Notes: generated by a model from the letters alone, not told the origin. A stretch of 64,000 bases of DNA from an uncultured Candidatus Saccharibacteria bacterium (GCA_964493895.1 CAZBPY010000002.1:131351-195350); one strand, 5' to 3'; positions 1,625 to 59,938 are shown, counted from the stretch's first letter. Program-made: numbers and translations.

Positions 1625-1690
1625 ACCGGTTAGTATACGCCATGCCGACCGATCTATTGATCATTGTGTCATTTATGTTATTGTATGCTG

Positions 1691-2245
1691 ATGTCAAATG
1701 CCCGCTTGTATGTAGAGGAGTTTACCCCAGAAATCTTCCCTGAAGCCATTGGCAGGAGCGGCATATATGTATGGCCGCCCCATCTTTCCGGTGAGAGTTA
1801 TGGCTGTGGCTTCTTTGGCTTTGCGCTACACCCAGATGACCATGATGGTCCAGTGATTGAGGAGGACGTTTTTGATGTTGCCTACATAGCAGCTCAACAC
1901 CCCCAATCATCGCCGGGTCTGGGCAGTCAAATAGCCGAGGTAATGCTTGATGCGGCCAAGGAGTCTGGTTTTGGCCTGGCCAGAATGCGAATTGAGAACC
2001 CTAAAATTGTCTCCATACTAGAAAGATTTAAAGCAAATAGCATTATAGATGCGGTAACCTACGCTTTAAGCGGCTTGAATGGACGAGAGATTGCCTGTCC
2101 CCGACCATCTCACGACTTCACAAAAGGGAGAGCCAAGCTTAGCCCAGAGGAAGCAAAAGCTCATATCAACTCACACCAGCTGGACGATTTAGCAAAAATT
2201 GTCAGCCACGGCAGTGTTGCTATAGAGTGTTTGGTTGAAATTTAA
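1691..2245 (+). CDS. hypothetical protein (weak GNAT-like resemblance: QSSPGLGSQIAEVMLDAAKESGF)
   Basis: ORF track 1664-2245 (TTG start). I prefer ATG 1691, which lies 6 nt after TGtTATTGT (1676-1684). It is an acidic soluble protein with no recognisable family. Confidence 0.5.
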   Translation: MSNARLYVEEFTPEIFPEAIGRSGIYVWPPHLSGESYGCGFFGFALHPDDHDGPVIEEDVFDVAYIAAQHPQSSPGLGSQIAEVMLDAAKESGFGLARMRIENPKIVSILERFKANSIIDAVTYALSGLNGREIACPRPSHDFTKGRAKLSPEEAKAHINSHQLDDLAKIVSHGSVAIECLVEI

Positions 2246-3040
2246 CTATTTGGCTTTTCGAATCATGAAGAAAACGCTTGGGCCAAAATGAGTCCTGGCT
2301 AGAGGACGCTGCAAAAAGCTTTCAATCCGCACCATGACGGTATGTGGTATGACTTTTTTCAGAGCTCGGGAACGCAAATTCGATACTGACAACACCCTTT
2401 CAACTTTAAGTCCAGCATGAGCCAATTGTTTAACCACGGTCTTGGGGTTGTGGTTAACAAACGGAATTTCGTCGTCTTTCTGATTCTGGGGGCTGCGGAT
2501 ATCAATCGGTTTGGTCGGCAATTTCTTGCGTTTCATTAAGTATTTCAAACGGTTGCGGCCATGAGCCAGGTTGGCCATCTCTAAAATCAAAATTCCGTCA
2601 TCCGACAAAACTCGGGCCAGTTCATTAAATTCAGTAGTCGGATCCGGCAAATGATGCATAACTCGGATCATAGTTATAAGATCAACGCTGCCATCCTTAA
2701 ACTTCAAATCATCAGCCTGCATTAATTTGCGGTCAATATTAGGGTGGTCTTTTAAGAACTCCTTGGCGATATCCAGCTGCTGCTGGCTAGGTTCGGCCAG
2801 GGTTACTTTATCGGCATATTTTTCCAGCATCACACATAATCGGCCATAGCCGCCACCAATATCGACAGCGTGACGAAAGCGACGGCCTTTCAAAAACCGT
2901 CTAATAGCTAGCTTTTCCGAAGCATGCTCATAATCACGACCCTCCCAATACTGGAGATAGTTATGCTTGGGGTCATTATACTGATCAGCTTTCTTCCTGG
3001 AGTTATTTGTTGTTTTAGATTTATTGGATTTTTTAGCCAT
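2246..3040 (-). CDS. class I SAM-dependent methyltransferase
   Basis: Motif I VDIGGGYGRL, acidic loop LAEPS, and post-I/II pattern DLITMIRVMHHL. The length is typical of the Methyltransf_11/25 type. Confidence 0.85.
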   Translation of the reverse strand: MAKKSNKSKTTNNSRKKADQYNDPKHNYLQYWEGRDYEHASEKLAIRRFLKGRRFRHAVDIGGGYGRLCVMLEKYADKVTLAEPSQQQLDIAKEFLKDHPNIDRKLMQADDLKFKDGSVDLITMIRVMHHLPDPTTEFNELARVLSDDGILILEMANLAHGRNRLKYLMKRKKLPTKPIDIRSPQNQKDDEIPFVNHNPKTVVKQLAHAGLKVERVLSVSNLRSRALKKVIPHTVMVRIESFLQRPLARTHFGPSVFFMIRKAK

Positions 3041-3061
3041 AGGATTCCTAGTATATCAGGT

Positions 3062-4285
3062 TCAAGCTTTTACGATAGCAAAAGAGTTTTTGCCGCGTTT
3101 GAGCAGATTCAGTCCGGATTGAAAATCAACCATCTGGCCGACGATTTTCTGGCCATTTATCGAGACGCTGCCGGCCTCGACAAAACGATTAGCCTCGGAA
3201 TTGGATGATGCCAGACCAGCAGCCACCAAAGTTTCAGCCAACGATTTGCCAACTTTGACCACCGGCAGTTCCTTGGTCAGACTGTCTTTCTGCTGTTCGT
3301 TCAAATCTAGAAATTCACCTTTGCCAAACAGCACTTCGCTAACTTTTCGTACACCATCAGCTTGATCTTTGCCATGGATTAACTTTGTCACCTCATAAGC
3401 TAATAGCTTTTGAGCTGCTCTTTGTCCCTTATTAGACTTGAACTCGCTCATAACTTTTTGTATCGCTGGTTTATCTAGAGTTGTAAATATCTTTAAATAA
3501 CCCTCAACATCAGCATCATCAATATTTAGCCAGAACTGGTAAAACTTGTACGGACTGGTCAGTTTTGGATCAAGCCAAACAGCACCCTCTTCTGATTTAC
3601 CAAACTTCACCCCTGTGGCATTGTTAATTAACAGGGGTATTGTCCAAACGTGAGCCTCTTGACCAGTTTTGCGCCGAATCAAATCAACACCAGCAATGCT
3701 GTTGCCCCACTGATCGGCTCCGGCTAACTGCAGGGTCACGCCGTGCTTCTCGAACAAATGCAAGAAGTCGTAACCCTGTATCAGGGAATAACTGAACTCG
3801 GCGTAACTGATGCCAGCGCCCTGTTCCGATAAGCGCTCTTTGACAAATTCTCGCCCCAACATCGTCCGCATCGGCACATGCTTGCCAACATCGCGCAAAA
3901 ACTCCAGATAGCCAATGTTTTTGAACCAGTCATAGTTATCAACAATCTCAAACTTCTGTCCCTCAAAAATGGTTTTGTACTGATCAGCCAAGCCTTTTTT
4001 ATTCTTAGCTACCTCCTCAGGCGTCTTAAGGTCTCGCTCCTGGACTTTGCCGTCCGGATCACCAATCAGGCCAGTAGCGCCGCCAACCAGTAAAATAGGC
4101 TTAAATCCGTGCTTGATAAACACCTTTACCATCATGGCCGGGGCCAGGTGCCCAATTGTCATCGAGGCAGCACTAGGGTCCACTCCCCAATAAAAAGTCC
4201 GCTTTTGCTTATCAAGGTCTTTTATATCCCTAAGGGTGGTCTGCTTAACAAAACCGCGCCATTTTAGCTCTTCAGATAACGTCAT
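3062..4285 (-). CDS. tyrS: tyrosine--tRNA ligase
   Basis: HIGH-region variant TIGHLAPAM, KMSKS variant KFGKS, and a C-terminal S4-like domain. The track starts at TTG 4294; ATG 4285 (MTLSEELKWRG) is more likely. Confidence 0.93.
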   Translation of the reverse strand: MTLSEELKWRGFVKQTTLRDIKDLDKQKRTFYWGVDPSAASMTIGHLAPAMMVKVFIKHGFKPILLVGGATGLIGDPDGKVQERDLKTPEEVAKNKKGLADQYKTIFEGQKFEIVDNYDWFKNIGYLEFLRDVGKHVPMRTMLGREFVKERLSEQGAGISYAEFSYSLIQGYDFLHLFEKHGVTLQLAGADQWGNSIAGVDLIRRKTGQEAHVWTIPLLINNATGVKFGKSEEGAVWLDPKLTSPYKFYQFWLNIDDADVEGYLKIFTTLDKPAIQKVMSEFKSNKGQRAAQKLLAYEVTKLIHGKDQADGVRKVSEVLFGKGEFLDLNEQQKDSLTKELPVVKVGKSLAETLVAAGLASSNSEANRFVEAGSVSINGQKIVGQMVDFQSGLNLLKRGKNSFAIVKA

Positions 4286-4345
4286 ACTCGTCAATAGTAT
4301 ACCTTAAACCAACAGATTAAACATATTGTCATTAATAACTCCTTG

Positions 4346-4354
4346 TGTTATAAT
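4346..4354 (+). promoter_or_regulatory. extended -10 box TGtTATAAT, 6 nt upstream of ATG 4361 (leaderless architecture)
   Basis: Read directly from the sequence ccttgTGtTATAATatgaatATGagc. Confidence 0.5.
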
Positions 4355-4360
4355 ATGAAT

Positions 4361-4966
4361 ATGAGCGGCTTTAATGCAGGGGAGCACGATCAAAATAGTG
4401 GTCGTCAGGTTCCGGCATCGATACAACTTCCAGAAATCATCAAAGAGCGGGCTAATGAACTTTTCAGACAAGCTGTTGATAGGATCGACACCGAGATCTT
4501 TACTGGGGACCATGACCCTAGCATGGTGGCCTTTGATCGAAGTCCCCGAGTGCCATTTAGCTGTGGCGAGGTAGACTCAATCCAGCTAGATATGATGATG
4601 GGTGAATCAGACTTGTCTACGGTGGGGGTTCATTTATTTAGTGACGGGTCACCTTATGCATTTGAAGAAGACCTGGATGCTCCCTCTCTTGATAAGGCAA
4701 ACCTTTATGATATTGTGGCATTAAGAGAGGAAGCTCTACCTTATTTTGCCAGCTCTAGATATAGTGCTTTTGATAGCCCGTATAGCACTGCCTATTTAGA
4801 TCTTGTTAGAAGAGGAAACGTTCCACATCCACACCGACTAGACGAGTCAGCTTGTCAACAATTGATGGAAATTGTACTCGATCCGGTTTTGATCGAATGG
4901 GTAGATCTTGATGAAATCAAGCTAAACTATGATGCGACTGATGGGCTGATGAACTCCGGGTTCTGA
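4361..4966 (+). CDS. hypothetical acidic protein (orphan)
   Basis: ORF track 4343-4966 (TTG start lies inside the -10 box). ATG 4361 or 4355 is more likely. No TM segment, no signal peptide and no recognisable motif. Confidence 0.55.
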   Translation: MSGFNAGEHDQNSGRQVPASIQLPEIIKERANELFRQAVDRIDTEIFTGDHDPSMVAFDRSPRVPFSCGEVDSIQLDMMMGESDLSTVGVHLFSDGSPYAFEEDLDAPSLDKANLYDIVALREEALPYFASSRYSAFDSPYSTAYLDLVRRGNVPHPHRLDESACQQLMEIVLDPVLIEWVDLDEIKLNYDATDGLMNSGF

Positions 4967-8150: not shown

Positions 8151-9500
8151 TTAGCTTTGGAGGAAGGTGTTGAGGGCGCTGCGAACGTCTTTGACTGGGT
8201 GCAACATCTTATCCTTGCCGCCAGTGCGCGGCTTTGGACCAATGGCTACTTCTAGGCCCATTTTCTTGGCTTCGGCTAGGCGTTTTTCAACATAGGGCAC
8301 TTGGCGAACCTCGCCGGACAGGCCGACTTCTCCGAAAGCGGCAGCGTTTTGTTTTAATTGCAGTCCCTTAGCCGCCGATCCGATAGCCATACAAATGGCC
8401 AGGTCGGCCGCCGGCTCGGTGATGCGGATGCCGCCGACAATGTTTATATAAATGTCCTTGTCGGATAGGTTCAATTTTGTTCGCCTCTCCAACATCGCCA
8501 CCAGAAGGTTGAGCCGATTTAGATCGATGCCGCTAGCAGTGCGTTTTGGATAACCGTAGCTGGTGGAGTTAACGAGGGCCTGAACTTCAACCAGGATTGG
8601 TCGGCTGCCTTCCATAGTCGCTAAGACGACTGAGCCATCGGTGATCTGGCGCTCGGCCAACAAAGCTTTCGATGGGTTATCGACAATTTTCAATCCGCTG
8701 TCCAGCATTTCCAGGATAGCAACCTCGTTTGTCGACCCAAAGCGGTTTTTGACCCCGCGCAGCACCTTGAATCCACCGTAACGATCGCCTTCTAATTGCA
8801 AGACGACATCAACTATGTGTTCCAGAAGCTTCGGTCCAGCGATTGAACCCTCTTTAGTGACATGGCCGACTAGCAACAACGCCGTGTTTGAGGCTTTGGC
8901 GGCTTGCATCAGCATGGTGGTGCAGCTGGTGATCTGGCTGACACTGCCTGGCGAGCTAGTTAAGCGGTCAGTGCCAATGGTTTGAATTGAATCGACCACC
9001 ACCAGATCGTATTGGCCGCTGTTAATGCTGGCCTGGATATCTTCTACTCTGGTACTGGCGGCAATTTGTAGTTTAGGACTGCTGGCCCCCAGGCGCTTGG
9101 CCCTTAGGCCAACCTGATGGACAGATTCTTCGCCACTGACGTACAGAACTCGGTGACCTTTGGCCACGGCATCAGCCAGTTGAAGCAGCAAGGTGCTTTT
9201 ACCGATACCAGGTTCGCCGGCCAGCAGAATCACACTGCCAGCCACTACTCCGCCGCCTAAAACTGTGTCGACGTCCTGAAGGCCGCTTTGTAGACGTTTC
9301 TCATCAGTTTTAACTGCTTGTTTACTATCGGTCGGTGTCAAAGCCTGGCCGCCAGACAAATCGCCGCCGGAAGAACGTGAGGTTGCTACGACAACTTCTT
9401 CAAAAGTGTTCCACTCACCACAATTAAAACACTTGCCGGCCCACACACTGGATTCAGCTCCGCAATTATTGCAAACGTATTTCTTCTTCTCCTTAGCCAC
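8151..9500 (-). CDS. radA: DNA repair protein RadA/Sms
   Basis: N-terminal zinc ribbon CNNCGAESSVWAGKCFNCGEW, Walker A GEPGIGKSTLLLQ, KNRFG motif, and a Lon-like C-terminal domain. GTG start. Confidence 0.95.
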   Translation of the reverse strand: MAKEKKKYVCNNCGAESSVWAGKCFNCGEWNTFEEVVVATSRSSGGDLSGGQALTPTDSKQAVKTDEKRLQSGLQDVDTVLGGGVVAGSVILLAGEPGIGKSTLLLQLADAVAKGHRVLYVSGEESVHQVGLRAKRLGASSPKLQIAASTRVEDIQASINSGQYDLVVVDSIQTIGTDRLTSSPGSVSQITSCTTMLMQAAKASNTALLLVGHVTKEGSIAGPKLLEHIVDVVLQLEGDRYGGFKVLRGVKNRFGSTNEVAILEMLDSGLKIVDNPSKALLAERQITDGSVVLATMEGSRPILVEVQALVNSTSYGYPKRTASGIDLNRLNLLVAMLERRTKLNLSDKDIYINIVGGIRITEPAADLAICMAIGSAAKGLQLKQNAAAFGEVGLSGEVRQVPYVEKRLAEAKKMGLEVAIGPKPRTGGKDKMLHPVKDVRSALNTFLQS

Positions 9501-9548
9501 AACTCTTAGTTTAGCAAACAGAGATTAACTTTCGATTAAAAAGCAAGG

Positions 9549-10565
9549 TTACAATGTTTGGGGGCGGCTGTCTATGGATTGCTGTAATGACTGCACCTCA
9601 ACGGCAAGGCTATTCCGTTCGGCTACGATCTGATTATATTGATCAATCAGATCGCGAGTGCGAGTAACTAGAGCGTTGTAACTATTGACCGCTTGATTAT
9701 AAATTGGCACCATCGAATTATAGGCCTCAAAATTGCCGCTTGCTTCCAGGCTTTCAAGTTCAGCTTGTTGAGCTTGTAGCAAACCAAGTTGGGCCTCAAT
9801 TTCAATCTGATTAGCATCGATGGTTGCTCTTATATTAGCTAGCTGTTCGTCATAACGAGCCACTTGATTCTCGCGGCGCAAAAATTCGTTACCATATGCT
9901 TCGGCAAATCCTACCACCACCTGCCGATCGGAGAAATATCGTCGATAGTAGTCCTCTAACTCGGCTGGCAAATCACGCAGTTCGGTACCCAGGATCGAGT
10001 GCAGTTCACTCGGAACAGCTGCCGGATCTGAGGCTTCATATTGAGCGATTGCTTGTCGGATAGGACTATCAGCCGGCAGCCTTTCATAGGCTTGTCTGAG
10101 AAGTTGGTCGACTCGCTGGCGTTCTTTGTCCGACAAGCGGTCATAGGCGGCATGCAACATTTCGTGGGCTGCTGTCACCTGCATAACGCCGTCTAATCGC
10201 TGGTCGTTAACGTTATAGAGATACATACTGCCGTAAAGACCGCCGCTATTGATATAGCAACCTAGAATAATTGAATATTCGGCGGCGGTGCCCTGTCGAC
10301 AACTGGAATTAAACTGCTCGCGGTCAGTAATCTGCGGATGTGTAGTGTAGTAAATCCGCCGGCCCTTGTCAGTCATGGTAGTCTCATCTGCCAATGCCAC
10401 GACCGCCGGCGGAGCCTGATACTCCCGCAGCCGCCACCAATCGCTAATGTCCTGACGAAATAGCCAACCGCCCGCCAACACCGCCAGAAGGAGGAAACTA
10501 AATATCAGGCCGCCGAGACGGCGCCTGTGGTGCTTCTGGTAATGGGGATGTAAGATTGTCGCCAT
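9549..10565 (-). CDS. membrane-anchored protein with an HExxH motif (HEMLH) and a long C-terminal coiled coil; function unknown
   Basis: The basic N-terminus followed by a TM helix (LGGLIFSFLLLAVLAGGWLF) predicts an extracytoplasmic body. Motif AAHEMLHAAY is present. The last ~110 aa are heptad-like and Q/E/L-rich. Confidence 0.7.
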   Translation of the reverse strand: MATILHPHYQKHHRRRLGGLIFSFLLLAVLAGGWLFRQDISDWWRLREYQAPPAVVALADETTMTDKGRRIYYTTHPQITDREQFNSSCRQGTAAEYSIILGCYINSGGLYGSMYLYNVNDQRLDGVMQVTAAHEMLHAAYDRLSDKERQRVDQLLRQAYERLPADSPIRQAIAQYEASDPAAVPSELHSILGTELRDLPAELEDYYRRYFSDRQVVVGFAEAYGNEFLRRENQVARYDEQLANIRATIDANQIEIEAQLGLLQAQQAELESLEASGNFEAYNSMVPIYNQAVNSYNALVTRTRDLIDQYNQIVAERNSLAVEVQSLQQSIDSRPQTL

Positions 10566-10589
10566 ACCCTAATTAGTATAACTACAATA

Positions 10590-13079
10590 TTATTCAGTGA
10601 CTACTGCGTATTTTAGATCTTTTTTGGTTGAGGTGACTTCTATGATGTCGCCCTTTTTGTAACTGTCCTGCAGTAGTTCATCGGCAATATAATCTTCCAA
10701 GGTGTCTTGCAGTAAACGGCGCATTGGGCGCACCCCGTTTAGCGAGTCATAGCCATGCTGCAGCATGTATTTCTTAGCTTGTGGTGTCAGTTTAATTCCC
10801 AGGCCATGCTTGACCAACCTATTTTGCAGCTCTTGCACCTGCAAATCAAGGATTCTAGAAATATCCTTCTTGGTTAGCGCCCTAAACACAATCGTCTTAT
10901 CAATTCGGTTAAGAAGCTCTGGCCGCAGCAACTTTTTCAGTTCGTCGTTGACTTTGTCTTTGTTGCGCTGGTGCAACTTGTCCAAATCATCGATATCGCG
11001 CTGGTCGCTGGCGGCAAAGCCTAGATTAGCCTCTTTTTGGAGCTTCTCGGCGCCAATGTTACTGGTCATGATTACAATTGTGTTGGTAAAGTCAATTTTA
11101 CGGCCTTTGGCATCAGTCAGGTGGCCATCTTCAAGCACCTGCAGCAACATGTTGAACACTTCCGGGTGAGCCTTTTCAATCTCGTCAAATAACACCAGGC
11201 TGTAAGGCTGGCGGCGAATCTTATCTGTTAGTTGGCCGCCATCGTCATAGCCGACATAACCGGCCGGAGCACCGACCAGTCGGGCCACGTTATGGTGTTC
11301 AGCAAATTCGCTCATGTCGATCTTGACCAAAGCATCTTCCGAACCATAAAACTCTCGAGCCAGTACTCGTGCTAGTTCGGTTTTGCCTACTCCAGTCGGG
11401 CCTAAGAAGATGAATGAGCCAATTGGCCGCTTGCTGCTGCCGACACCAGAGCGGCTGCGGCGAACAGCCTTAGCCACGGCTGAGACCGCCTCGTCTTGAC
11501 CAATCACGTACTTGGACAAGGTCTTTTCCAGGTTCATCAGGTATTTGGCTTCAGATCGAATCACCTTTTGTACCGGCACGCCCGTCATACGAGCCACAGT
11601 GCCGGCTACATCATCACTAGACATAATCAACTTCTTGCCTTTTCGATCGGCGGCTTGAAGTTTCTTGAGGTCTTCTTGAATCTGGCTGGCCCGCTGCTTG
11701 TACTCAGCAGCCTTTGCATAATCCTCGGCGTCGCTGGCCTCATCTTTGCGGACCTCGACCAATTTCAATTCTTTCTGCAATTTGCGAACTTCTGGTGGTG
11801 TGCGGCCTTTGTCCAAGCGCAGGTGAGCAGCCGTCTCGTCAATTAGATCGATAGCCTTGTCTGGCATAAACCGATCGCGGATGTAGCGCTTAGCCAAATT
11901 AACGGTATCCTCCAAAACCTCATCACTAATTGTCACCCCGTGGAACGACTCATAATGTTTACGCAGGCCTTTCAGAATCGATAGAGTCTCGGCAATATTG
12001 GTTTCTGGAACCTGAATCGGCTGCAAACGACGTTCGAGGGCAGCGTCTTTTTCGATATGTTTGGTGTATTCGGCAGTGGTTGTTGCTCCGATCAGCTGGA
12101 TTTTGCCGCGAGCCAAAGCCGGCTTCAGAATGTTTCCGGCATCCATTGAGCCCTCAGCAGAACCAGCTCCAACAATCAGATGCAGCTCGTCAATAAAGAC
12201 AATGGTGCCCTTGTCAGACTCAAGCTCAGCCATAACCTTTTTAAGACGATCTTCGAATTCGCCGCGATACTTAGTGCCGGCAATCATCCCAGCTAGGTCA
12301 AGCATGACAATCCGCTTTTCCAATAAAGCGTCGGGGACTTCTTCATTAACAATTCTTTGAGCCAAGCCTTCAACGATAGCTGTCTTACCGACACCTGGTT
12401 CACCAATTAGGACCGGGTTATTTTTGGTTCGGCGGTTAAGGATAGTAATGACGCGGCGGATTTGGGCTTCTCGACCAACCACCGGGTCAAGTTTTTCGTT
12501 GCGAGCCTCTTGTGTCAAATCGGTCCCAAAGAAGTCTAAAGCCGTCTTGCGGCCCTTTTTGCTGGAGCGCTTTTTGGAAGTAGCACCCGGACCATCCTGA
12601 CGCGACCCGTCATATTGCTGGCGGTTCATAAATTGTTCCAGTTCACTGGTCACTGCGTCGATGTCCATACCCATATCGCGCAATAGCACCGTGGCCCGAG
12701 CATTCTTTTGGCTCAAAATGCTGTACAAAATATGTTCGGTGCCGCAAAAGTCTTGATTAAATTCCTGACTCAACTCATAAGCCATTTTCAAAGTCAATTT
12801 AGCTGCTGCCGACATGCCCTTGTTGCCCATGTTAATCACCACTGTATTGGGCTGGAGATTCAAAGCAATCTTAGCCTTATCCAAACTGACACCAGCATCC
12901 TGCAGGATCTTGGCTCCCATCGAGCCATCCTGAGATAAAATACCAATCAATAGATGTTCTGTACCGACAAAAGGACTGCCGGCTGCCCGAGCAATGGCAT
13001 CAGCATGCCTGAGGCTTTGCAGGGCATTTTCTGACAAGTGGTTTAAAAATTCTTGAAATTCTGAGTTTGGTGGCATCAT
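10590..13079 (-). CDS. clpC: ATP-dependent Clp protease ATP-binding subunit ClpC (class I Clp/Hsp100)
   Basis: Two Clp_N repeats. AAA+ module 1 has GEPGVGKTA, a UVR-like linker follows ([18 protein letters not shown]), and AAA+ module 2 has [11 protein letters not shown]. Confidence 0.93.
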
Positions 13080-13089
13080 AGGTAACCTC

Positions 13090-13119
13090 AGAATAGCAAA
13101 ATTAGCACTCTCATGTCAA
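13090..13119 (-). promoter_or_regulatory. clpC promoter candidate: -35 TTGACA, 18-nt spacer, -10 TATTCT, then SD GAGG
   Basis: The minus strand reads CTCTTGACAtgagagtgctaattttgcTATTCTGAGGttacctATG. The -35 lies inside the CIRCE spacer. Confidence 0.5.
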
Positions 13120-13128
13120 GAGTGCTAA
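13102..13128. promoter_or_regulatory. CIRCE operator (HrcA-binding inverted repeat), perfect match to the consensus
   Basis: TTAGCACTC-tcatgtcaa-GAGTGCTAA equals the consensus TTAGCACTC-N9-GAGTGCTAA. It lies 23 nt upstream of the clpC start. Confidence 0.85.
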
Positions 13129-14894: not shown

Positions 14895-14903
14895 TGCTAT
14901 GAT
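14895..14903 (+). promoter_or_regulatory. extended -10 box TGcTATGAT, 7 nt upstream of the pepN ATG (leaderless)
   Basis: Sequence attgTGcTATGATtacctaaATGagc. Confidence 0.55.
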
Positions 14904-14910
14904 TACCTAA

Positions 14911-17484: not shown

Positions 17485-17800
17485 CTAAAAACTGCGGGCC
17501 ACTGACTTCCACGGCGGCGAGGTGACATGGGCCAGCCCACTTGTTTTGAGCCATCCAGAATTCGGCAGCAAATGCCAGCTGTTTGTACTTGACTGGACCT
17601 ATATAGTCAATGCCGCTGCCCCACAAATCACGTTGTCGATATTTGACCTCAACAAATATGACTGTATCACCCCTAACAGCCACGATATCGATTTCACACC
17701 ACCTGGTCCGCCAATTTTGCTTGACAATTTGATAGCCTTTGTCTTGCAAATAGACCGCTGCCACTCGTTCGGCCTGGCGTCCAATCGCGGTGGTGCTCAT
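17459..17800 (-). CDS. yraN: YraN-family (UPF0102) endonuclease-like protein
   Basis: GRQAERVAAVYLQDKGYQIVKQNWRTRWCEIDIVAV...FVEVKYR matches the family signature. Its 3' end overlaps pepN by 26 nt (convergent). Confidence 0.85.
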   Translation of the reverse strand: MSTTAIGRQAERVAAVYLQDKGYQIVKQNWRTRWCEIDIVAVRGDTVIFVEVKYRQRDLWGSGIDYIGPVKYKQLAFAAEFWMAQNKWAGPCHLAAVEVSGPQFLVTAFVPEL

Positions 17801-17849
17801 AACAGCAGCCTAGCAGTCAAGTCTTAAATAGTTCTTAACTAAAAACAGT

Positions 17850-42612: not shown

Positions 42613-42670
42613 ACACCCCCGCTTTACTTAAATCCCATTATAAACTGCTCATGCTTCTACTGGCAATACA

Positions 42671-42700: not shown

Positions 42701-42708
42701 AGTAGTTT

Positions 42709-44841: not shown

Positions 44842-44857
44842 TTGATTCAATTCTACC

Positions 44858-49054: not shown

Positions 49055-50079
49055 TTAAATTGCCTCAAGAATTCTAGTTTGCCGGATTCGAAGTGGCGAA
49101 CGTCTTCAATGCCTTGTTTCATCATTACCAAGCGGTCAATACCGACGCCCCACGCGAACCCGGTGTACTCACCTGGATCGATGTCGGCCATCTTTAGCAC
49201 ATTCGGATGGATCATGCCGCAACCTAAGAGTTCGATCCAACCAGCTTGGCTGCAAACCTTGCAACCCTTTTTGGCGCAGAACGGACAGCTAATCGCAAAT
49301 TCAAAACTTGGCTCGGTAAACGGGAAATAAAATGGTTGAGTACGAACCTCAAGATCTTGTTTGTAATACTCCTCTAGGAATGTTTTAAGCGTAGCAATTA
49401 AGTGACCGGCGTTAACTCCTTGGCTGACATAAACTCCCTCGACTTGATAAAAGGTGTGCTCGTGACGAGCATCCAAATCCTCATTTCTAAAAACTCGTCC
49501 TGGAATAACTGTGGCGATCGGCCGGCCAGCTTTCAGATTGGCCTTACTAGCTTTTAGAACCCGATTTTGCATAGTGCTGGTATGCGCCGGAGCTATCAGC
49601 CCGTCTTTGGTCATGAAAGTATCATAATCATCGCGAGCCGGGTGGCCCTGCGGAAAGTTGAGCGTCTCGAACATATGATAATCATCATCCAGTTGACGCG
49701 ACTCAACGGCCTCAAATCCCATCCGTCCAAAGATGTCGAGGATTTTTTCTAGTTCGGTCATTAGCGGGTGCCGACTGCCCCTATCGGCTGGCAACAGTTG
49801 CGGCAGACCAGCGTTAACATCCATTGGAGCCGTCACATCAATCGGTGGTAATGACTGGTTGGTATCCTGGGCCCTGCCCGCAAGGTCCTCCAGCTCGGCC
49901 TTGAGTTGGTTCAACTCTTTTCCAAACCCAGCTCTTTCGGTTGGCTTTAACAGAGGTATTTCAGCCGCCAAAGCCTTCAGCTCTGGAGCCCGCAAAATAC
50001 CGCTCGGCTTGTCCGTTTTTGACAACTTTTTTTTCAAGTCAGCAGCCACCGCGGCTATCTTCTTATTTTTATAGCTCAT
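49051..50079 (-). CDS. pheS: phenylalanine--tRNA ligase subunit alpha
   Basis: Class II motifs: HPARD, FRNE and YFPFTEPS...GCGMIHPNVL. Confidence 0.95.
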   Translation of the reverse strand: MSYKNKKIAAVAADLKKKLSKTDKPSGILRAPELKALAAEIPLLKPTERAGFGKELNQLKAELEDLAGRAQDTNQSLPPIDVTAPMDVNAGLPQLLPADRGSRHPLMTELEKILDIFGRMGFEAVESRQLDDDYHMFETLNFPQGHPARDDYDTFMTKDGLIAPAHTSTMQNRVLKASKANLKAGRPIATVIPGRVFRNEDLDARHEHTFYQVEGVYVSQGVNAGHLIATLKTFLEEYYKQDLEVRTQPFYFPFTEPSFEFAISCPFCAKKGCKVCSQAGWIELLGCGMIHPNVLKMADIDPGEYTGFAWGVGIDRLVMMKQGIEDVRHFESGKLEFLRQFK

Positions 50080-50117
50080 ACTTAACCATAGTATACCATC
50101 TGTGGTACTCTGGTGAC

Positions 50118-50645
50118 ATGGCAGCTGTGGAGATAAATCCGCCTGAAGTTAGGCTGGAAAAAGTTGGCTTTAGACCAGTAGTATTTTTAGCCGGTCCTAT
50201 TCAAGGCGCTCCGGACTGGCAGACAGAAGCTGTAGACATTATTAGTAGCCGAACCGTGGCTGAGGTTATCGTTGCAAACCCCCGTACCGATGATTACCGG
50301 GACTATGAATCACAAGTCAGTTGGGAGCAGCGTTATCTTCGACGAGCGAAAAAGCTTGGCGGGATTGCTTTTTGGTGCCCGGCTGAAACAACTGATTGCC
50401 CAAGCCCCAACCCTGTTGACAGATCATATGCTCAAACTACCAGAATTGAGTTCGGTAAGGTAACCGGGTGGCTTGATTATGACAGCGAAGCAATTGTTTC
50501 CATAGGTATAGAAGAGGGCTATAGCGGCAGTGATAAATACTACAGATATGACGCTGAGCAGTATGGCCTGCCAATACATTCCACATTAGACGAAACAATT
50601 ACTCATTTATTGAGAAAGGTAGAGGCAGTCTATGGCCCAATTTAG
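50118..50645 (+). CDS. nucleoside 2-deoxyribosyltransferase-like protein
   Basis: VVFLAGPIQGAPDWQ is the N-terminal Rossmann-like signature of the family. The track ORF (49941) is over-extended antisense into pheS. ATG 50118 lies 6 nt after TGgTACTCT. Confidence 0.55.
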   Translation: MAAVEINPPEVRLEKVGFRPVVFLAGPIQGAPDWQTEAVDIISSRTVAEVIVANPRTDDYRDYESQVSWEQRYLRRAKKLGGIAFWCPAETTDCPSPNPVDRSYAQTTRIEFGKVTGWLDYDSEAIVSIGIEEGYSGSDKYYRYDAEQYGLPIHSTLDETITHLLRKVEAVYGPI

Positions 50646-51129: not shown

Positions 51130-51153
51130 GCATAACCCTGTATACTGGTGTCA

Positions 51154-52500
51154 ATGCCACAGAATAAAAAATCCCAAGGACCAGAACTGCCGGCTGAACT
51201 GATGGGTCGGGCTAAACAGGTTTTGGCCGACAATTATCGAAATGGGCATACCGTACCGGCCGAGGGGCTTTATCCTCATCAATGGCTGTGGGATAGTTGT
51301 TTCGTGGCTATCGGGCTGGCCCATTATGATGTTGAGCGAGCTCAAACCGAAATCCTAAACTTGCTCAAAGGTCAGTGGAGCAACGGCATGATACCTAATA
51401 TGATATTTGATTCAGCTCTGAAATATCGGCAGGACCGCGAGCTATGGCGCAGCTATGCTTCTCCATATTCACCGGACAAGGTGGCAACCAGTGGAATAAC
51501 CCAGCCGCCAATGATTGCTGAAGCTGTAGTGCGGATTGGCAAAAAACTACCCAAGACCGAACGCCTAGAATGGTACAACAAAGTTTACCCAAAATTGGTC
51601 AAGTATCACCGCTGGCTGTACCGCGAGCGTGATCCAAAAAATGAAGGCTTGGTGCTGCTAGTCCACCCTTGGGAGTCGGGCATGGACAGTTCGCCGGCGT
51701 GGATGGCTGACCTACGGGTTCATCACCAATCGTGGTGGATAAAATTTGTTAAAGTTGCCGGGCTGGAACCTTTGATTAGCAAGTTACGCCGCGACACTAA
51801 ATTCATCCCGCCCGGACAAAGGCTCAGCACCATCGATGCTTTAATTGTCTTTAATTTGGTCCGAAAATTGCGTCACCGAGCTTATAGCCACCAAAAAATC
51901 ATGCACAGCCGCCTACCTAAAGTTGAAGACGTCGGCTTTAATGCCATATTTATTCGAGCCAATGCTCATCTTCAACATATTGCCAAAGCTCTAAAACGGT
52001 CATTGCCGGAAGGTTTACAAGCTGACATCAAACACACTGAAGAAGTCTTTAGCGACCTGTGGGACGAAGCGGCCAGTCAATATTTCAGCTTTAACATTAA
52101 CACTGGCCAGAAAATTTTGATTCCCACCATTGGCAGCTTGTTACCGCTGTACTCTGGCAAGATCAGTAAAGATCACGCTTCCCGACTGGTTAGCCATCTG
52201 AAGGATAAGGGTGTTTTTAAGGCAAAGTTTCCAGTGCCAAGCGTACCGCAAAATTCTTCCTGGTTTGAACCACATCGTTACTGGCAGGGGCCAACTTGGG
52301 TTAATGCTAACTGGCTGTTAGTTGATGGCTTGGAAAGATATGGCTTTAAAGAAGAGGCTGCCCATATTCGCAGCCAATCCTTGAAAATGGTAGAGGAAGC
52401 CGGTTTTTATGAGTATTTTTCGCCAATCGATGGTTCGCCAGCCGGCGCCAAGAACTTCTCTTGGACAGCTGCCCTAACCATAGACTTTCTAAATCAGTAA
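51154..52500 (+). CDS. (alpha/alpha)6-barrel glycoside hydrolase, GH63/MGH1-like
   Basis: YPHQWLWDSCF, HPWESGMDSSP and QGPTWVNANWLLVDGL. The track start is GTG 51148; ATG 51154 lies 7 nt after TATACT. Confidence 0.6.
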   Translation: MPQNKKSQGPELPAELMGRAKQVLADNYRNGHTVPAEGLYPHQWLWDSCFVAIGLAHYDVERAQTEILNLLKGQWSNGMIPNMIFDSALKYRQDRELWRSYASPYSPDKVATSGITQPPMIAEAVVRIGKKLPKTERLEWYNKVYPKLVKYHRWLYRERDPKNEGLVLLVHPWESGMDSSPAWMADLRVHHQSWWIKFVKVAGLEPLISKLRRDTKFIPPGQRLSTIDALIVFNLVRKLRHRAYSHQKIMHSRLPKVEDVGFNAIFIRANAHLQHIAKALKRSLPEGLQADIKHTEEVFSDLWDEAASQYFSFNINTGQKILIPTIGSLLPLYSGKISKDHASRLVSHLKDKGVFKAKFPVPSVPQNSSWFEPHRYWQGPTWVNANWLLVDGLERYGFKEEAAHIRSQSLKMVEEAGFYEYFSPIDGSPAGAKNFSWTAALTIDFLNQ

Positions 52501-54378: not shown

Positions 54379-55461
54379 CTAGTCTTCTTGGGCCGGTCGA
54401 TCTAAAACCAGCGGTTCGACAGCCGGTGAAGTTTCGGCAATCTTGACCACATCTTTATCAATTTTCTTTAGCTCCTTATGAGCCGCATTGTAGTGATTAA
54501 CGGTAGTGCCCAGGCTGCCGCCGAGTTTGTGCATAAAAGTTTCGTACGAGTTAATGTGACGGCCAAGCTCGCCGACACGCTTTTGAATTTCTTTGGCTTG
54601 TTCTTCGATTTGCAAGCTACGCAAACCTTGGAGCACAGTTTGCAGATAGGCCATAAAGCTGGTGGGGCTGACTATAATGACGTGCCTCTCCTGAAAGGCA
54701 TATTCGATTAGATCACGGGAATTAGTCACAGTTGTACCGACTTTATTGATCAAAAGATCATAATAAAGCGACTCCGATGGTATAAACATAAAAGCAAAAT
54801 CCATGGTATTTTCATTGGGACGAATGTACTTTGATGTTTCATCAATCCGGTTTTTCAGGTCAACCTTGAACCTTTTAATCAGGTTGTCACGGACAGTTTT
54901 ATTTTTTTCTTCGATCAGGCGATTGTAGTTTTCTAAGCTAAACTTAGAATCAATTGGCAAGACCTTGCCCTTGTCCAGAAAGATAACAGCATCAACAGTT
55001 TCGCCGTCTTTGAACTTGTGCTGCATAGCATAACGACCTGGCGGCATGACATTTTCTAGTACGCTTTGCAGGTAATATTCACCGACCACTCCGCGCTGTT
55101 TAGGGTTTTGCAGCACGTTTTGCAGAGTTTTAAGCTCGTCAGCTACATTAACCACCCGTTTGTTGGTCTCGTCTAACTTAGCTAGCCGCTCGGTCACATC
55201 AGCAATAATCCGAGCACTCTGGGCAAACTGCTTTTGAATGCTGGCTCCCATCTGAGTCTGCGATTCTTGCAACTTTTTGTTAATATTTTCGTTCAGTGAC
55301 TCTTTCAGATCAGTCACATTTTTATTAAGATTATCCAGATCAGTTTTAAGAAGTTGGGTGGCTTGACCGTCAGCCGGCCGAGCCAGTTTGCGATTAAAAA
55401 ATATGACCAGCCCAAAAAAGCTAATCACAATCAAAGAACCAAGAATAATTGCTGTCTCCAT
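54379..55461 (-). CDS. rmuC: DNA recombination protein RmuC
   Basis: N-terminal TM helix, coiled coil, then the nuclease-like core DAVIFLDKGKVLPIDSKFSLENY...FMFIPSE. Confidence 0.85.
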   Translation of the reverse strand: METAIILGSLIVISFFGLVIFFNRKLARPADGQATQLLKTDLDNLNKNVTDLKESLNENINKKLQESQTQMGASIQKQFAQSARIIADVTERLAKLDETNKRVVNVADELKTLQNVLQNPKQRGVVGEYYLQSVLENVMPPGRYAMQHKFKDGETVDAVIFLDKGKVLPIDSKFSLENYNRLIEEKNKTVRDNLIKRFKVDLKNRIDETSKYIRPNENTMDFAFMFIPSESLYYDLLINKVGTTVTNSRDLIEYAFQERHVIIVSPTSFMAYLQTVLQGLRSLQIEEQAKEIQKRVGELGRHINSYETFMHKLGGSLGTTVNHYNAAHKELKKIDKDVVKIAETSPAVEPLVLDRPAQED

Positions 55462-55480
55462 GTAGTTATATTATAGCAGC

Positions 55481-56366: not shown

Positions 56367-56375
56367 TGCTAAAAT
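56367..56375 (+). promoter_or_regulatory. extended -10 box TGcTAAAAT, 6 nt upstream of ATG 56382 (leaderless)
   Basis: Sequence tttTGcTAAAATtgatacATGgaa. Confidence 0.55.
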
Positions 56376-56381
56376 TGATAC

Positions 56382-56801
56382 ATGGAAACAGATGAGCTAT
56401 TCGCCAAAACTCTGCGGCAGAATGGCCGCAGCTTAACCCAGGCTCGAATTCTGGTTTATGAAGCTTTGCAAGACGAGGAACCCCTATCAATGGCGGAACT
56501 CGGACTTAAGCTGGATGGCATGGTCGACAGAGCTAGTTTGTATCGCACAATATCTATGTTCGAAAAGTTAGGCATCATTCAACGGCTGCAGATTGGCTGG
56601 AAATACAAGATCGAATTGGCTGATGATTTTAACTTTCACCACCACCACATCACCTGCAAGAATTGTGGTATGAGCCTGCCGGTCAGAGAAGACCTAACCC
56701 TGGAAGCCAGCGTCAAGACTTTGGCTATGGAATATGGCTTTTCAGAAGTAGCTCACCAAATTGAAATCCGCGGTTTGTGCCCAAAGTGTCGGTTGATTTG
56801 A
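56382..56801 (+). CDS. Fur-family transcriptional regulator (probably Zur)
   Basis: Winged-helix N-terminal domain, then HHHHITCKNCG...CPKC metal sites. It is divergent from the ZIP transporter. Confidence 0.85.
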   Translation: METDELFAKTLRQNGRSLTQARILVYEALQDEEPLSMAELGLKLDGMVDRASLYRTISMFEKLGIIQRLQIGWKYKIELADDFNFHHHHITCKNCGMSLPVREDLTLEASVKTLAMEYGFSEVAHQIEIRGLCPKCRLI

Positions 56802-56811
56802 GACCTAACCA

Positions 56812-58173
56812 CTAACGGCGGCCGAATAACAGCAGCCCTAGGCATAGCCAGGCCAGGCAAACACCGGCAGCAATCAGAGTGAATGGCATTAGCCCAAAGG
56901 TGAAAATAAATGGCATCGACAGAGCTGTAACAATACCGCCCCCAACAAAAGGCTCAAACATCAGCTGCTTATAGCCAAAGCTCTCAACGGTATTGGTTTT
57001 ATCACGCGGGTCGACCATGTGCACAAACAATAAACCGGTGGCCGTCATGCCCATCGATTGAGCCATGTTGACAATTCCGTTCTGAAACCAATTTTTCTGA
57101 AACATCCGCTGAGCCAAAAATACAAAGCCAAACAGGATCCAGATAATGCCAGAAGCAGCCAGCAGCACAAACACCGGCATATGGGAAACGATATAATTGA
57201 GCGACATAGTACCGACAGCGGTGGCAATCAATATGCTAAGCGAGATTGCACTAATCAGCTCGACCAGTGGCCGAAAAACGTACCAACCCAGGCGTTTCCA
57301 AATTTTATGGGCCACAATACCGCCAAACATACAAATTGGGAAGAATGGCACATACTGCAGAATGCTGATGCCAGTACTAGCTGTTAGGGTGTAATGTTCT
57401 AGGATCAGCAGCCCTTGGTAGATCAGCCAACCAATCCCAACCGCTACCGCCACCAGAATCAAATGGTTGATAATACTCTTTAAGTTTAGGTGGTCACGCA
57501 GCCGGATCCCTTCCCGGCGCAACTCATAAATAATCCGCCGGTGATAGGCCCGAACCCGAGCTGTTTGTTTGTGAACGTCTTTAATGTGGTGTCGGCGGCG
57601 CCCCCAATGGACCAAGATTATACCGCTGACCAAAGCAGTAATTAAGCTGACCGTTGCCAGGCCTAGAGCCAATTCCTGGCCTTCTGGAAAACCCAGTTGG
57701 TGAAAAACCGGTCCCAGACCTGATGAAGTTCCATGGCCGCCCTCAAAGCTAATTTCAATCAGGGCGGCGCTAAGCGGGTTCACACCAAAAACCGGCATAA
57801 GTACCAGCAGTGTCAACAAGCCGCCGATCATATATTGCCCCCAGGCCAGTGTCTGCCCGAAGGCCACTTGGGGCCCAGCCAGCCGCCACATTTTTCTAAA
57901 CGGTAATACTGGCCGAGCTAAGAACAAGCAAGCGAAAACAACATTAATGAGTTGTTTGGGAAATTGGCTCCACATTTGGTAGTAGGCTGAGGGCAGCTGG
58001 TAGTCGGGAAAGAATACGCCGGAAATGTCTGGACCGAGAGCTAATAATATCATGCCAGAAGCCAGTGATCCCGGTAAAAATGCCCACCTAATCACCGGCA
58101 GCCGAACGAACAAATAACCCAGGATTACGGCAAAGGCTAGAACACTTAAACCAGCTAAATAAAATGTGGGCAT
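56812..58173 (-). CDS. gltS: GltS/ESS-family sodium:glutamate symporter
   Basis: About 12 TM helices. EISFEGGHGTSSGLGPVF aligns with the E. coli GltS segment ITLSGGHGTGAAWSKLF (recalled from memory). Confidence 0.7.
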   Translation of the reverse strand: MPTFYLAGLSVLAFAVILGYLFVRLPVIRWAFLPGSLASGMILLALGPDISGVFFPDYQLPSAYYQMWSQFPKQLINVVFACLFLARPVLPFRKMWRLAGPQVAFGQTLAWGQYMIGGLLTLLVLMPVFGVNPLSAALIEISFEGGHGTSSGLGPVFHQLGFPEGQELALGLATVSLITALVSGIILVHWGRRRHHIKDVHKQTARVRAYHRRIIYELRREGIRLRDHLNLKSIINHLILVAVAVGIGWLIYQGLLILEHYTLTASTGISILQYVPFFPICMFGGIVAHKIWKRLGWYVFRPLVELISAISLSILIATAVGTMSLNYIVSHMPVFVLLAASGIIWILFGFVFLAQRMFQKNWFQNGIVNMAQSMGMTATGLLFVHMVDPRDKTNTVESFGYKQLMFEPFVGGGIVTALSMPFIFTFGLMPFTLIAAGVCLAWLCLGLLLFGRR

Positions 58174-58233
58174 TGCCCTTCACTATACCATAAGCGTTTT
58201 CCAAAGTGGCCGCTTCTACCCCTATAAATCTTG

Positions 58234-58259: not shown

Positions 58260-58316
58260 AGTGGAAGTCTCTCGCTTCCTATCTCAGCATAAGCGATTTA
58301 AACCAATTTTGCAATC

Positions 58317-58940
58317 TTAGCTAGAGAGCTTCTCAGTCACAAACTTCTGGACTGCCAGCCGTGATCCCAAGGCCACGATCACCCCCAAACAAAAGCCACC
58401 AATGATGTCCAGGGGCGCATGAACTCCCAAATAAATTCGCGAAAAACCAACGCTGACAATCCATACCCACAATAACCATTTATAACGCCGGGCTGTGTAT
58501 GGCATCAATGTCATTGCCAAAACTGTCGCTACAGCCGTGTGTCCCGACGGGAAACCGTACCCGCTGGCCTGCTCTAGACGTACCACTATTTCAACAAGCA
58601 CTTCGGCTGGGCGGGGTCGGGCTACCAGCCATTTGACGGCTAAGGTAATCAGAAAAGTGGCAGCTGCATTGGCCATCAGTAAGGCTGCCAACCGCCGTCG
58701 CTTTAAGACAAAAGTCACAGCTACAATAGCCAGCACAGCGCCCAGGCTGCCAGTCTGAGTGATCGAATAGACCAGCTCGCTAAACGGTCCGGGGATTCTA
58801 TAGATTGAATCCAAAATTTGCTGCTCCAAGCCACTGAACTGTTGGGTACTCGATAGCCAAGTCGTCCCAATAAGTCCTACTGCCGCCGCTGATAGCGCCC
58901 ACCAAATGCGCTGCTCGTTCTTAACATGAGCAGTTCCCAT
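58317..58940 (-). CDS. PAP2-family phosphatase (undecaprenyl-diphosphatase/BcrC-like)
   Basis: KWLVARPRP (Kx6RP), FPSGHT (PSGH) and SRIYLGVHAPLD (SRx5Hx3D). The track start is TTG 58976; ATG 58940 lies 6 nt after TATCAT. Confidence 0.85.
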   Translation of the reverse strand: MGTAHVKNEQRIWWALSAAAVGLIGTTWLSSTQQFSGLEQQILDSIYRIPGPFSELVYSITQTGSLGAVLAIVAVTFVLKRRRLAALLMANAAATFLITLAVKWLVARPRPAEVLVEIVVRLEQASGYGFPSGHTAVATVLAMTLMPYTARRYKWLLWVWIVSVGFSRIYLGVHAPLDIIGGFCLGVIVALGSRLAVQKFVTEKLSS

Positions 58941-59035
58941 GACACTATGATAGCTGAGCTTAAGCTTATTACCCAAATTTTATGCACAGCCCCAAGCAGT
59001 TGCAGGCTTTGATGTCTATCCATACAATAGTGGTT

Positions 59036-59938
59036 ATGGCAGAGATCGAACATGTAATAGAAGTCCAAAAACTAGTCAAAAAATTTGGTAATTTTACTGC
59101 CCTAAACCATCTTGATTTAGAAGTACGCCGTGGTGAAGTCCACGGCTTTCTTGGACCTAATGGTGCTGGAAAGTCGACTACCATCCGGATTCTTTTAGGC
59201 CTTTTGCGCAAAACTTCCGGGCAAGCAAGTCTGTTCGGACAAGATCCATGGGCTAACTCAGTCGAACTCCACAAACGATTGTCATATGTACCTGGAGATG
59301 TCAGCTTATGGGACAACCTATCAGGCGGCGAAGTAATCGATCTATTTAGCAGCCTCCGCGGCGGTCTTGACACTAAACGCCGGGCCCAGCTTCTCAAGGA
59401 TTTCCAGCTTGACCCGCGCAAAAAGTGTCGAACCTACTCCAAGGGGAATAGACAGAAGGTTGCCCTGGTAGCAGCTTTGGCGACCGATGCTGAGCTTTAC
59501 ATTATGGATGAGCCAACCAGTGGTCTGGATCCGCTGATGGAATCGGTTTTCCAGAGCTATGTTAATGAGTTAAAGACACAAGACAAAACCATATTACTTT
59601 CTAGTCACATTCTGGCTGAAGTTGAGGCTCTTGCTGATCGAGTAACAATTATTCGTCAAGGCAAAACTGTCGAGACCGGTACCTTGGCCGAGCTGCGCCA
59701 TTTAAGCCGAAACACTGTTCATGTCCATACCAAAAAACCCCTGGCTTCCTTTGCCAAGCTACCTGGTGTGCACGATCCAAAGATTGACAAGAATCGAGCA
59801 GTTTTTGACGTTGAAAATACTGATATAGGTGAGGTTATGAATCATCTGACCAAGTATGAAATTATTAGTCTGACCAGCACTCCGCCAACCCTGGAAGAGC
59901 TATTTATGCGGCATTACGGGGTAAAGGAGGATAAGTGA
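59036..59938 (+). CDS. ABC transporter ATP-binding protein
   Basis: Walker A GPNGAGKST, Q-loop, signature variant YSKGNRQK, and Walker B LYIMDEPTSGLD. ATG 59036 lies 7 nt after TACAAT. Confidence 0.9.
   Translation: MAEIEHVIEVQKLVKKFGNFTALNHLDLEVRRGEVHGFLGPNGAGKSTTIRILLGLLRKTSGQASLFGQDPWANSVELHKRLSYVPGDVSLWDNLSGGEVIDLFSSLRGGLDTKRRAQLLKDFQLDPRKKCRTYSKGNRQKVALVAALATDAELYIMDEPTSGLDPLMESVFQSYVNELKTQDKTILLSSHILAEVEALADRVTIIRQGKTVETGTLAELRHLSRNTVHVHTKKPLASFAKLPGVHDPKIDKNRAVFDVENTDIGEVMNHLTKYEIISLTSTPPTLEELFMRHYGVKEDK

Follow-up and report, generated by a model that had tools for sequence, protein, structure and literature searches.

A −10 box 6–8 nucleotides before start codons: predicted leaderless transcription from extended −10 promoters in Candidatus Saccharibacteria

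How is a gene expressed if its promoter box lies so close to the start codon that neither a 5' untranslated region (5' UTR) nor a Shine-Dalgarno (SD) sequence fits in between? This question is raised by a 64 kb stretch of DNA (~48% G+C) from the genome of an uncultured Candidatus Saccharibacteria bacterium (TM7, Patescibacteria; GCA_964493895.1, CAZBPY010000002.1:131351-195350), which was analysed over its whole length and is called the window here. The original prediction, made from this sequence, had listed 14 genes in which a −10 hexamer of the form TAnnnT, frequently extended by TGn, ends 6–8 nucleotides (nt) before the start codon, and had read these genes as leaderless. At all 14 sites the hexamer, the TGn where claimed, the spacing and the start codon are indeed present as listed. 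Eight further sites with a box 6–8 nt before an ATG were found, and the confident sites at this spacing number 22, of which 21 start with ATG and one, radA, with GTG. The geometry of these sites makes it very probable that extended −10, −35-independent promoters give rise to leaderless mRNAs in this genome, beside genes that are led by an SD sequence.

Boxes 6–8 nt upstream of start codons

Comparison with shuffled sequences, a check proposed together with the original prediction, revealed a positional excess at 6–8 nt. The element TGNTANNNT-N6-ATG (pattern TGNTANNNTNNNNNNATG) has 12 matches in the window, compared with 2.14±1.29 in 100 dinucleotide-preserving shuffles (shuffle maximum 5), and ten of the 12 open long open reading frames (ORFs). 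A second approach took the first ATG of each ORF, chosen blind to the upstream sequence, and derived the expectation from the other spacings. Under this first-ATG rule, leading genes of the window have 12 TAnnnT boxes at 6–8 nt versus 3.5 expected (p = 3e-4). In a curated table of 60 gene starts, TAnnnT is located 6–8 nt upstream of 24, and 15 of these 24 have the TGn. The corresponding numbers for 332 internal in-frame ATGs are 13 with the box (3.9%) and one with TGn (0.3%), which yields binomial p values of 1.5e-18 and 7e-25, respectively. At three of the 24 boxed starts (tyrS, pheS and o54350) the 6–8 nt match is another register of a box at 10–13 nt, and the 22 confident sites include a gene of 86 amino acids (aa) that is absent from the 60-gene table.

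These 22 sites are given below; the number between hexamer and start codon is the number of intervening nt, and sites beyond the 14 of the original prediction are marked as new.

1622..1637, minus strand: recG (RecG confirmed by NCBIfam), TATACT-7-ATG, start 1624
1676..1693, plus strand: o1691, 184 aa, function unknown, TGtTATTGT-6-ATG
4346..4363, plus strand: o4361, 201 aa, function unknown, TGtTATAAT-6-ATG
9498..9516, minus strand: radA, TGcTAAACT-7-GTG, the sole non-ATG case; positions 1-431 of the RadA profile align to residues 1-439, supporting the GTG start
14895..14913, plus strand: pepN, TGcTATGAT-7-ATG
17798..17815, minus strand: yraN (new, weaker), TGcTAGGCT-6-ATG, start 17800
19035..19052, plus strand: malic enzyme, TGcTATGAT-6-ATG
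20566..20583, minus strand: o20568, 128 aa, TGgTATAAT-6-ATG
22319..22336, plus strand: trmH-like methyltransferase, TGtTATAGT-6-ATG
22837..22851, plus strand: ykwD-like (new), TAGAAT-6-ATG, start 22849, 14 nt behind the trmH-like gene
28196..28210, minus strand: box of the 86-aa small membrane-like gene (new; gene 28198..27938), TAGAAT-6-ATG
34785..34802, minus strand: uvrB (new), TGtTAGAAT-6-ATG, start 34787, within an 18-nt same-strand gap; residue 3 aligns to position 1 of the UvrB profile
41129..41146, minus strand: rpe (new), TGtTAGAAT-6-ATG, start 41131, within a 23-nt same-strand gap
42668..42711, plus strand: o42709, TTGACA-18-TGtTATAAT-8-ATG, the sole site in this list with a noted −35-like hexamer
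44839..44855, minus strand: trxB (new, uncertain), TAGAAT-8-ATG, start 44841
50103..50120, plus strand: o50118, nucleoside deoxyribosyltransferase-like, TGgTACTCT-6-ATG
51141..51156, plus strand: glucosylglycerate-hydrolase-like gene (ggh), TATACT-7-ATG, start 51154
55459..55478, minus strand: rmuC-like (new), TGcTATAAT-8-ATG, start 55461, within a 19-nt same-strand gap
56367..56384, plus strand: fur, TGcTAAAAT-6-ATG
58171..58190, minus strand: o58173, 453 aa (new), TGgTATAGT-8-ATG
58938..58952, minus strand: PAP2 phosphatase, TATCAT-6-ATG
59023..59038, plus strand: ABC ATPase, TACAAT-7-ATG, start 59036

NCBIfam agrees with the gene names of the original prediction (recG, radA, pepN, malic enzyme, trmH-like, fur, PAP2, ABC ATPase, tyrS, pheS, gatC, pilB, grx and nusA) and added the names uvrB, rpe, trxB, yraN, rplS, gap, ppa, clpC-like and rmuC-like. 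The malic enzyme (19050-20189) shares 57-76% identity with proteins from contigs of Candidatus Saccharibacteria or Saccharimonadales metagenome-assembled genomes.

The same spacing is preferred in related genomes. Two sets of loci were used, both consisting of metagenome-assembled-genome and metagenome contigs with crude ORF calls made for the present analysis: 21 loci from Saccharibacteria that surround the malic-enzyme gene (330 kb) and, as an independent set, 80 loci from metagenomes around pheS (942 kb), with duplicates removed by N-terminal peptide. Histograms of the spacing that took in every ATG were noisy due to codon periodicity and redundant loci and were replaced by ORF-start filters and de-duplication. 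In the 21 loci, TGnTAnnnT followed by an ATG that opens an ORF of at least 100 codons occurs 26, 12 and 10 times at spacings of 6, 7 and 8 nt, compared with roughly 0–8, typically 2–3, at each other spacing. Under the first-ATG rule these loci have 67 boxes versus 21.4 expected (p = 3e-15), and the de-duplicated pheS loci 69 versus 12.5 (p = 1.5e-28). Among small sets of control loci, no peak at 6–8 nt was found for Bacillota (106 kb) and the rise in Bacteroidota was not significant. For high-GC Actinomycetota, a lineage rich in leaderless genes, the counts were small and concentrated at 7–8 nt. In other Patescibacteria, represented by four loci of Paceibacteria and Moranbacteria (L019, L020, L035 and L062), 10 boxes were counted versus 3.3 expected. 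The box architecture may extend past Saccharibacteria into other Patescibacteria.

What kind of element is the box? A matrix was built from 126 sites of the window and the first locus set, aligned on the hexamer with only T1, A2 and T6 imposed. The free positions of the hexamer are T (48%), A (63%) and A or C (49% and 36%). Upstream of the hexamer, where nothing was imposed, T is found in 57% at position −5, T in 54% at −3 and G in 58% at −2. These bases constitute the TRTGn extended −10 motif and are features of sigma-70 promoters. In the −35 region of the matrix the information content nowhere exceeds 0.15 bit. A scan of the classical type, for paired −35 and −10 hexamers, showed no enrichment (17 versus 11.6±3.8) and missed almost all sites, which is consistent with promoters lacking a −35 element.

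The start codons and their immediate surroundings agree with this picture. Counted at spacings of 6, 7 and 8 nt, the boxes precede ATG 33, 8 and 10 times, GTG 1, 1 and 0 times, TTG 0, 1 and 0 times and CTG 0, 1 and 1 times. Leaderless translation requires a 5'-terminal AUG, and the limitation of the peak to ATG fits this need. Transcription is known to start preferentially at a purine preceded by a pyrimidine at −1. The base before the ATG is a pyrimidine at 72% of the boxed sites (T at 53%), compared with 50% at SD-led starts (Fisher p = 0.0014). With a spacing of 6 nt, which is the most frequent, the A of the ATG is the seventh nucleotide after the hexamer. In 49 bacteria, the distribution of transcription starts has its centre 7 bp downstream of the −10 element (PMC12641261).

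Orthologs hold the spacing while the sequence of the hexamer drifts. A box is found 5–8 nt before the aligned ATG in 13 of 13 trmH-like orthologs, at 6–7 nt in 13 of 13 non-redundant rmuC-like orthologs and, as TAnnnT, at 6–8 nt in ten of 11 pepN orthologs from Saccharibacteria. Furthermore, it is kept in five of five fur and six of eight ggh orthologs, and the only ortholog found for o58173 has TGaTATAAT-8. Visual inspection of 21 malic-enzyme orthologs showed a box at 6–8 nt in about 13 and an SD sequence in five. Together with one or two pepN genes, the latter five show that the initiation mode was switched in some orthologs; for both genes, loci L004, L007, L009, L011, L013, L016 and L032 were compared with the window. 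The gene o50632 is SD-led in the window and box-led in 16 relatives.

The fur promoter (region 56340-56384, plus strand) has an additional feature. Directly upstream of its −10 box lies the motif TGCAAAwwTGTyGCAAT, a single copy within the window, which is kept in all five fur sequences (the window and the orthologs in loci L098, L112, L121 and L126). In three of the five an extra TTGCA is located between the −10 box and the ATG. The motif looks like an operator for Fur autoregulation that would cover the putative leaderless promoter.

Gene context, short leaders and annotated starts

The boxes had been described as systematic in front of operon-leading genes. This stands for the majority of unambiguous first genes: among the 20 genes with a divergent upstream neighbour, 13 have a box at 6–8 nt and three at 9–13 nt (16 of 20 combined), three are SD-led (pilB, nusA and gap) and one has neither. 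The description is too narrow in another respect, since boxes occur also inside same-strand arrays. A 6–8 nt box is carried by seven genes located 14–28 nt behind a same-strand neighbour, among them uvrB, rpe, rmuC-like and ykwD-like; in one of the seven it is an alternative register. In the related loci, genes close behind a same-strand neighbour have 19 boxes versus 5.2 expected. If, as predicted, a −35 element can be dispensed with, intergenic gaps of 14–25 nt are large enough to hold a complete promoter. As such a promoter with its spacer takes up about 18 nt, a tight array on one strand is probably a mosaic whose genes are transcribed separately.

Some divergent pairs are tight as well. 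The starts of pheS (minus strand) and o50118 (plus strand) are 38 nt apart (50080-50117), and their TGg-extended boxes stand back to back (50090-50098, minus; 50103-50111, plus), so that any −35 region would fall within the coding sequence of the neighbour. Short distances between divergent starts are also seen at recG/o1691 (66 nt), tyrS/o4361 (75 nt) and PAP2/ABC ATPase (95 nt).

A second class of genes with the same box at 9–11 nt, comprising tyrS, pheS and gatC, was confirmed with spacings of 10, 10 and 11 nt, respectively. The short-leader class (9–13 nt) consists of these three and further genes of the window; a clpC-like gene with its box at 10 nt is listed beside them:

50077..50098, minus strand: pheS, TGgTATACT-10-ATG
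31866..31888, minus strand: gatC, TGgTATACT-11-ATG, start 31868
4283..4301, minus strand: tyrS, TATACT-10-ATG, start 4285
3038..3058, minus strand: methyltransferase 3040, TGaTATACT-9-ATG
10563..10580, minus strand: o10565, TATACT-9-ATG
13077..13121, minus strand: clpC-like, TTGACA-17-TGcTATTCT-10-ATG, with GAGGT inside the 10-nt spacer
18974..18991, minus strand: rplS, TAGAAT-9-ATG
31936..31953, plus strand: o31951, hydrolase-like, TACAAT-9-ATG
62759..62782, minus strand: o62761, TGaTATAAT-12-ATG

Closer orthologs of pheS have a TATAAT or TATACT box 7–11 nt before the aligned ATG, mostly at 10 nt. Therefore, the second class is real for pheS, which implies a leader of a few nt. A scan of the whole 64 kb against Rfam at gathering thresholds gave no leader, riboswitch or T-box match, and accordingly no T-box or other leader RNA for tyrS, pheS and gatC; tRNA genes were not found across the window either. 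As had been noticed, pheS and gatC share the 12-mer GATGGTATACTA, of which the window contains exactly two copies (31879-31890 and 50089-50100, both on the minus strand) compared with 0.10 expected. Nine of its 12 bases are the promoter consensus TGgTATACT, and the 12-mer was dropped as a candidate for a separate regulatory element.

The SD sequences quoted in the original prediction for pilB, dnaE, grx and nusA are present. Two of these genes illustrate the leadered type:

22229..22250, minus strand: pilB, SD sequence AGGGAGGG
27416..27446, minus strand: dnaE, TATAAT ~24 nt upstream, followed by the SD sequence GGAGGG; leader of ~17 nt

The claimed coexistence of two initiation modes is borne out by 22 of the 60 tabulated genes, which have an SD-like motif and no box at 6–13 nt. 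These are mostly overlapping or internal genes, and they include every gene that overlaps its upstream neighbour. A −10-like box 21–24 nt before the ATG was seen at the SD-led genes dnaE, gap, ppa, o45864 and o53117 and at o56293, which has no SD sequence (minus strand, at approximately 27440, 42636, 43903, 45885, 53141 and 56316; implied leaders of ~15 nt). These six genes suggested a second spacing peak at ~22–24 nt, corresponding to a minimal SD-bearing leader. It was rejected, as the pooled loci show no clear peak.

The box-linked starts had also been thought to correct many over-extended TTG and GTG starts. The corrections hold when the comparison is with a list of longest ORFs. In the public annotation at NCBI, six of the ten genes tested have the short start already, namely o1691 (the box-linked ATG and not TTG 1664), the trmH-like gene, PAP2, o50118, ggh (ATG 51154) and the 86-aa gene. 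For the other four (ABC ATPase, o4361, tyrS and gatC) the NCBI starts differ. The ABC ATPase is annotated from ATG 59012 (308 aa), which overlaps the box. For o4361, neither the 201-aa nor the 207-aa version (starts 4361 and 4355) was found in the public protein collection; we suspect that it is annotated at ATG 4355, and if so its start, too, lies within or just after the hexamer.

The 86-aa gene has a hydrophobic N-terminus and sits in an apparent gap of 331 nt, in which the longest-ORF heuristic prefers an antisense ORF of 90 aa. A YtxH-like gene, which is SD-led, has its GTG 2 nt after the end of this ORF. The protein has no match in Pfam, and an exact copy is present in the NCBI annotation.

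The leaderless interpretation and its alternatives

In computational terms the leaderless reading has held at each point examined: position, relatives, promoter features, preference for ATG, pyrimidine at −1, orthologs and SD sequences. From the geometry we infer where transcription starts and how translation begins. According to the mechanism which we propose, a large share of the genes would be transcribed from sigma-70-type extended −10 promoters with the consensus T-n-TG-n-TAtaaT and no recognisable −35 element. The canonical transcription start, at the seventh to ninth nt after the hexamer, would coincide with the A of the ATG, and the resulting mRNA would possess neither a 5' UTR nor an SD sequence. 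Translation would then be of the leaderless type, with an AUG at the 5' end being recognised by the ribosome together with initiator tRNA. The tail at 9–13 nt (pheS, probably also tyrS and gatC) would give leaders of a few nt. Downstream genes that overlap or are closely coupled, and a minority among the first genes, would rely on ordinary SD initiation, and many genes within same-strand arrays would own a leaderless promoter. That −35-less leaderless initiation is the default architecture of Saccharibacteria, perhaps even of Patescibacteria generally, is a tentative extension which we regard as possible rather than likely. Were such a default tied to the reduced ribosomes and streamlined genomes of the group, a promoter-ATG module of ~18 nt would allow genes to be expressed one by one, and orthologs would change between leaderless and SD-led initiation over short evolutionary distances.

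Several observations weigh against this interpretation, at least for individual genes. In NCBI, tyrS starts at TTG 4294 and gatC at ATG 31877, that is, 1 and 2 nt after the hexamer, and these annotated starts would be incompatible with the hexamer being a promoter. Starts within the hexamer or 1–2 nt behind it, as annotated for the ABC ATPase, tyrS and gatC, cannot be on the transcript of that promoter; hence, there is an error either in these annotated starts or in the assignment of the promoters. For these three genes and for o4361, the next ATG downstream agrees better with the promoter geometry. Orthologs of two of the new genes speak a different language: for yraN a box is present in only one of 13 and an SD-like motif in five of 13, the rest having neither, and trxB orthologs are mostly without a box, with 13 of 20 SD-led. 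The boxes of yraN and trxB in the window are less secure, because most orthologs lack them. Furthermore, TAnnnT is frequent at 48% G+C, as its presence before 3.9% of internal ATGs demonstrates. For this reason weak boxes without TGn (TATCAT, TACAAT, the TAGAAT of trxB) or with poor cores (TATTGT, TACTCT, TAGGCT) could be due to chance. Finally, where a gene follows a neighbour on the same strand, read-through transcripts may carry it as well.

The last point leads to the alternative that survives best, although we still consider it unlikely: the promoters are real and secondary, most of the expression being due to longer transcripts, either leadered or polycistronic, and the leaderless transcripts being minor or conditional. 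The seven boxed genes only 14–28 nt behind a same-strand gene are in line with such an arrangement. In the 10 kb scanned for them (14–24 kb of the window), intrinsic-terminator-like sites were not enriched (10 versus 10.4 in shuffles), so read-through is plausible. However, the boxed genes lack any SD sequence, and their translation from read-through transcripts would be inefficient unless coupled. Moreover, 13 sites belong to divergent pairs with only 38–136 nt between the starts, leaving little room for other promoters, and the arrangement is under purifying selection across species.

According to another explanation, the box would act at the RNA level, as a non-SD, A/U-rich ribosome-binding element, with transcription starting further upstream. 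This would resemble 'group B' of the Bacteroidota, in which a non-SD motif that is not a promoter precedes all genes including internal ones (PMC6028130). The occurrence of the motif before genes 14–28 nt behind a same-strand neighbour would suit such an element. Yet the TG at −3/−2 and the T at −5 are features by which sigma-70 recognises extended −10 DNA, the commonest spacing matches the canonical distance from −10 to +1, and pyrimidines are enriched at −1. Truly overlapping internal genes have classical SD sequences, and the ribosomal anti-SD is thus in use. The same test gave no significant peak in the Bacteroidota control. We therefore regard an RNA element as very improbable.

Chance matches in A+T-rich intergenic DNA, with start codons picked to fit, could draw on the boxes before 3.9% of internal ATGs and on those ORFs, several in number, that have more than one candidate start, but such an origin deserves next to no credence and is refuted for the set as a whole by the 12 matches versus 2.1±1.3 in shuffles, by the blind first-ATG rule (p = 3e-4 in the window, 3e-15 in relatives) and by a peak confined to ATG and to 6–8 nt with a spacing kept in orthologs, even if it may apply to a few individual weak sites.

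Comparison with known systems

The mechanism of leaderless expression from a −10 box is itself not new. Apparently unreported are three points: the lineage in which it occurs, the extent to which TGn is used with no −35 element, and boxes placed in same-strand gaps that are very short. For one Saccharibacterium, TM7x, a set of transcription start sites from RNA sequencing reportedly exists. In the literature searched in full text, which included the main text of PMC6028130, no paper was found to report a leaderless architecture for Saccharibacteria or other Patescibacteria; the hits were reference-list entries, unrelated uses of the word or papers that seemed unrelated by title and abstract. 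For annotation, the spacing offers a simple start-calling rule that would alter the public start of at least four of the ten genes tested and flags small genes such as the 86-aa gene at 28198. It also has a bearing on how expression constructs are designed for Saccharibacteria, which have recently become tractable. In biological terms, it is relevant to translation initiation by reduced ribosomes and to the accommodation of promoters in very compact genomes.

Extended −10 promoters (TGn or TRTGn) of the sigma-70/sigma-A type work without a −35 element, as known from galP1 of E. coli and many Gram-positive promoters. The sites described here resemble them in the TG one base before TAnnnT, the T two bases further up and the lack of a −35 signal. 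They differ in that the promoter is fused to the start codon, with the discriminator being the full distance to the ATG, and their −35-independence is predicted from sequence. The cI gene of phage lambda transcribed from PRM and tetR of Tn1721 are examples of leaderless mRNAs in bacteria that use SD sequences. Both share with the genes considered here transcription from the A of the AUG and translation via a 5'-terminal AUG, which in our case are predicted. They are isolated cases within their genomes, whereas a genome-wide and lineage-wide mode is suggested here.

At the level of genomes, the 'group B' pattern shares with the window an A/T-rich motif close to the start codon and the lack of an SD sequence. 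In the window, internal genes have SD sequences and the motif carries the TGn features of a promoter; it is not one and the same non-SD, non-promoter motif in front of all genes. The closest likeness is to 'group C' as defined with GeneMarkS-2, in which a Pribnow box lies 6–8 nt before first genes and SD sequences precede the others (Lomsadze et al. 2018, PMC6028130). According to the same study, 90% of Actinobacteria genomes and 97% of those of Deinococcus-Thermus belong to group C, and differential RNA sequencing in Mycobacterium tuberculosis and Deinococcus deserti validated it (PMC6028130). Common to both are the box at 6–8 nt from the start, the SD sequences on internal or leadered genes and a share of about one third of the genes affected. 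The present case differs in its lineage, as Saccharibacteria and Patescibacteria are not among the phyla named in the main text of PMC6028130, and in its moderate G+C content (48%). In addition, TGn is frequent here (15 of 24 boxed starts in the window) and accompanied by the T at −5, the spacing is most often 6 nt, and boxes are also found in very short same-strand gaps. If start mapping confirms the predicted transcripts, Saccharibacteria would join Actinobacteria and Deinococcus-Thermus as bacteria with a large share of leaderless mRNAs.

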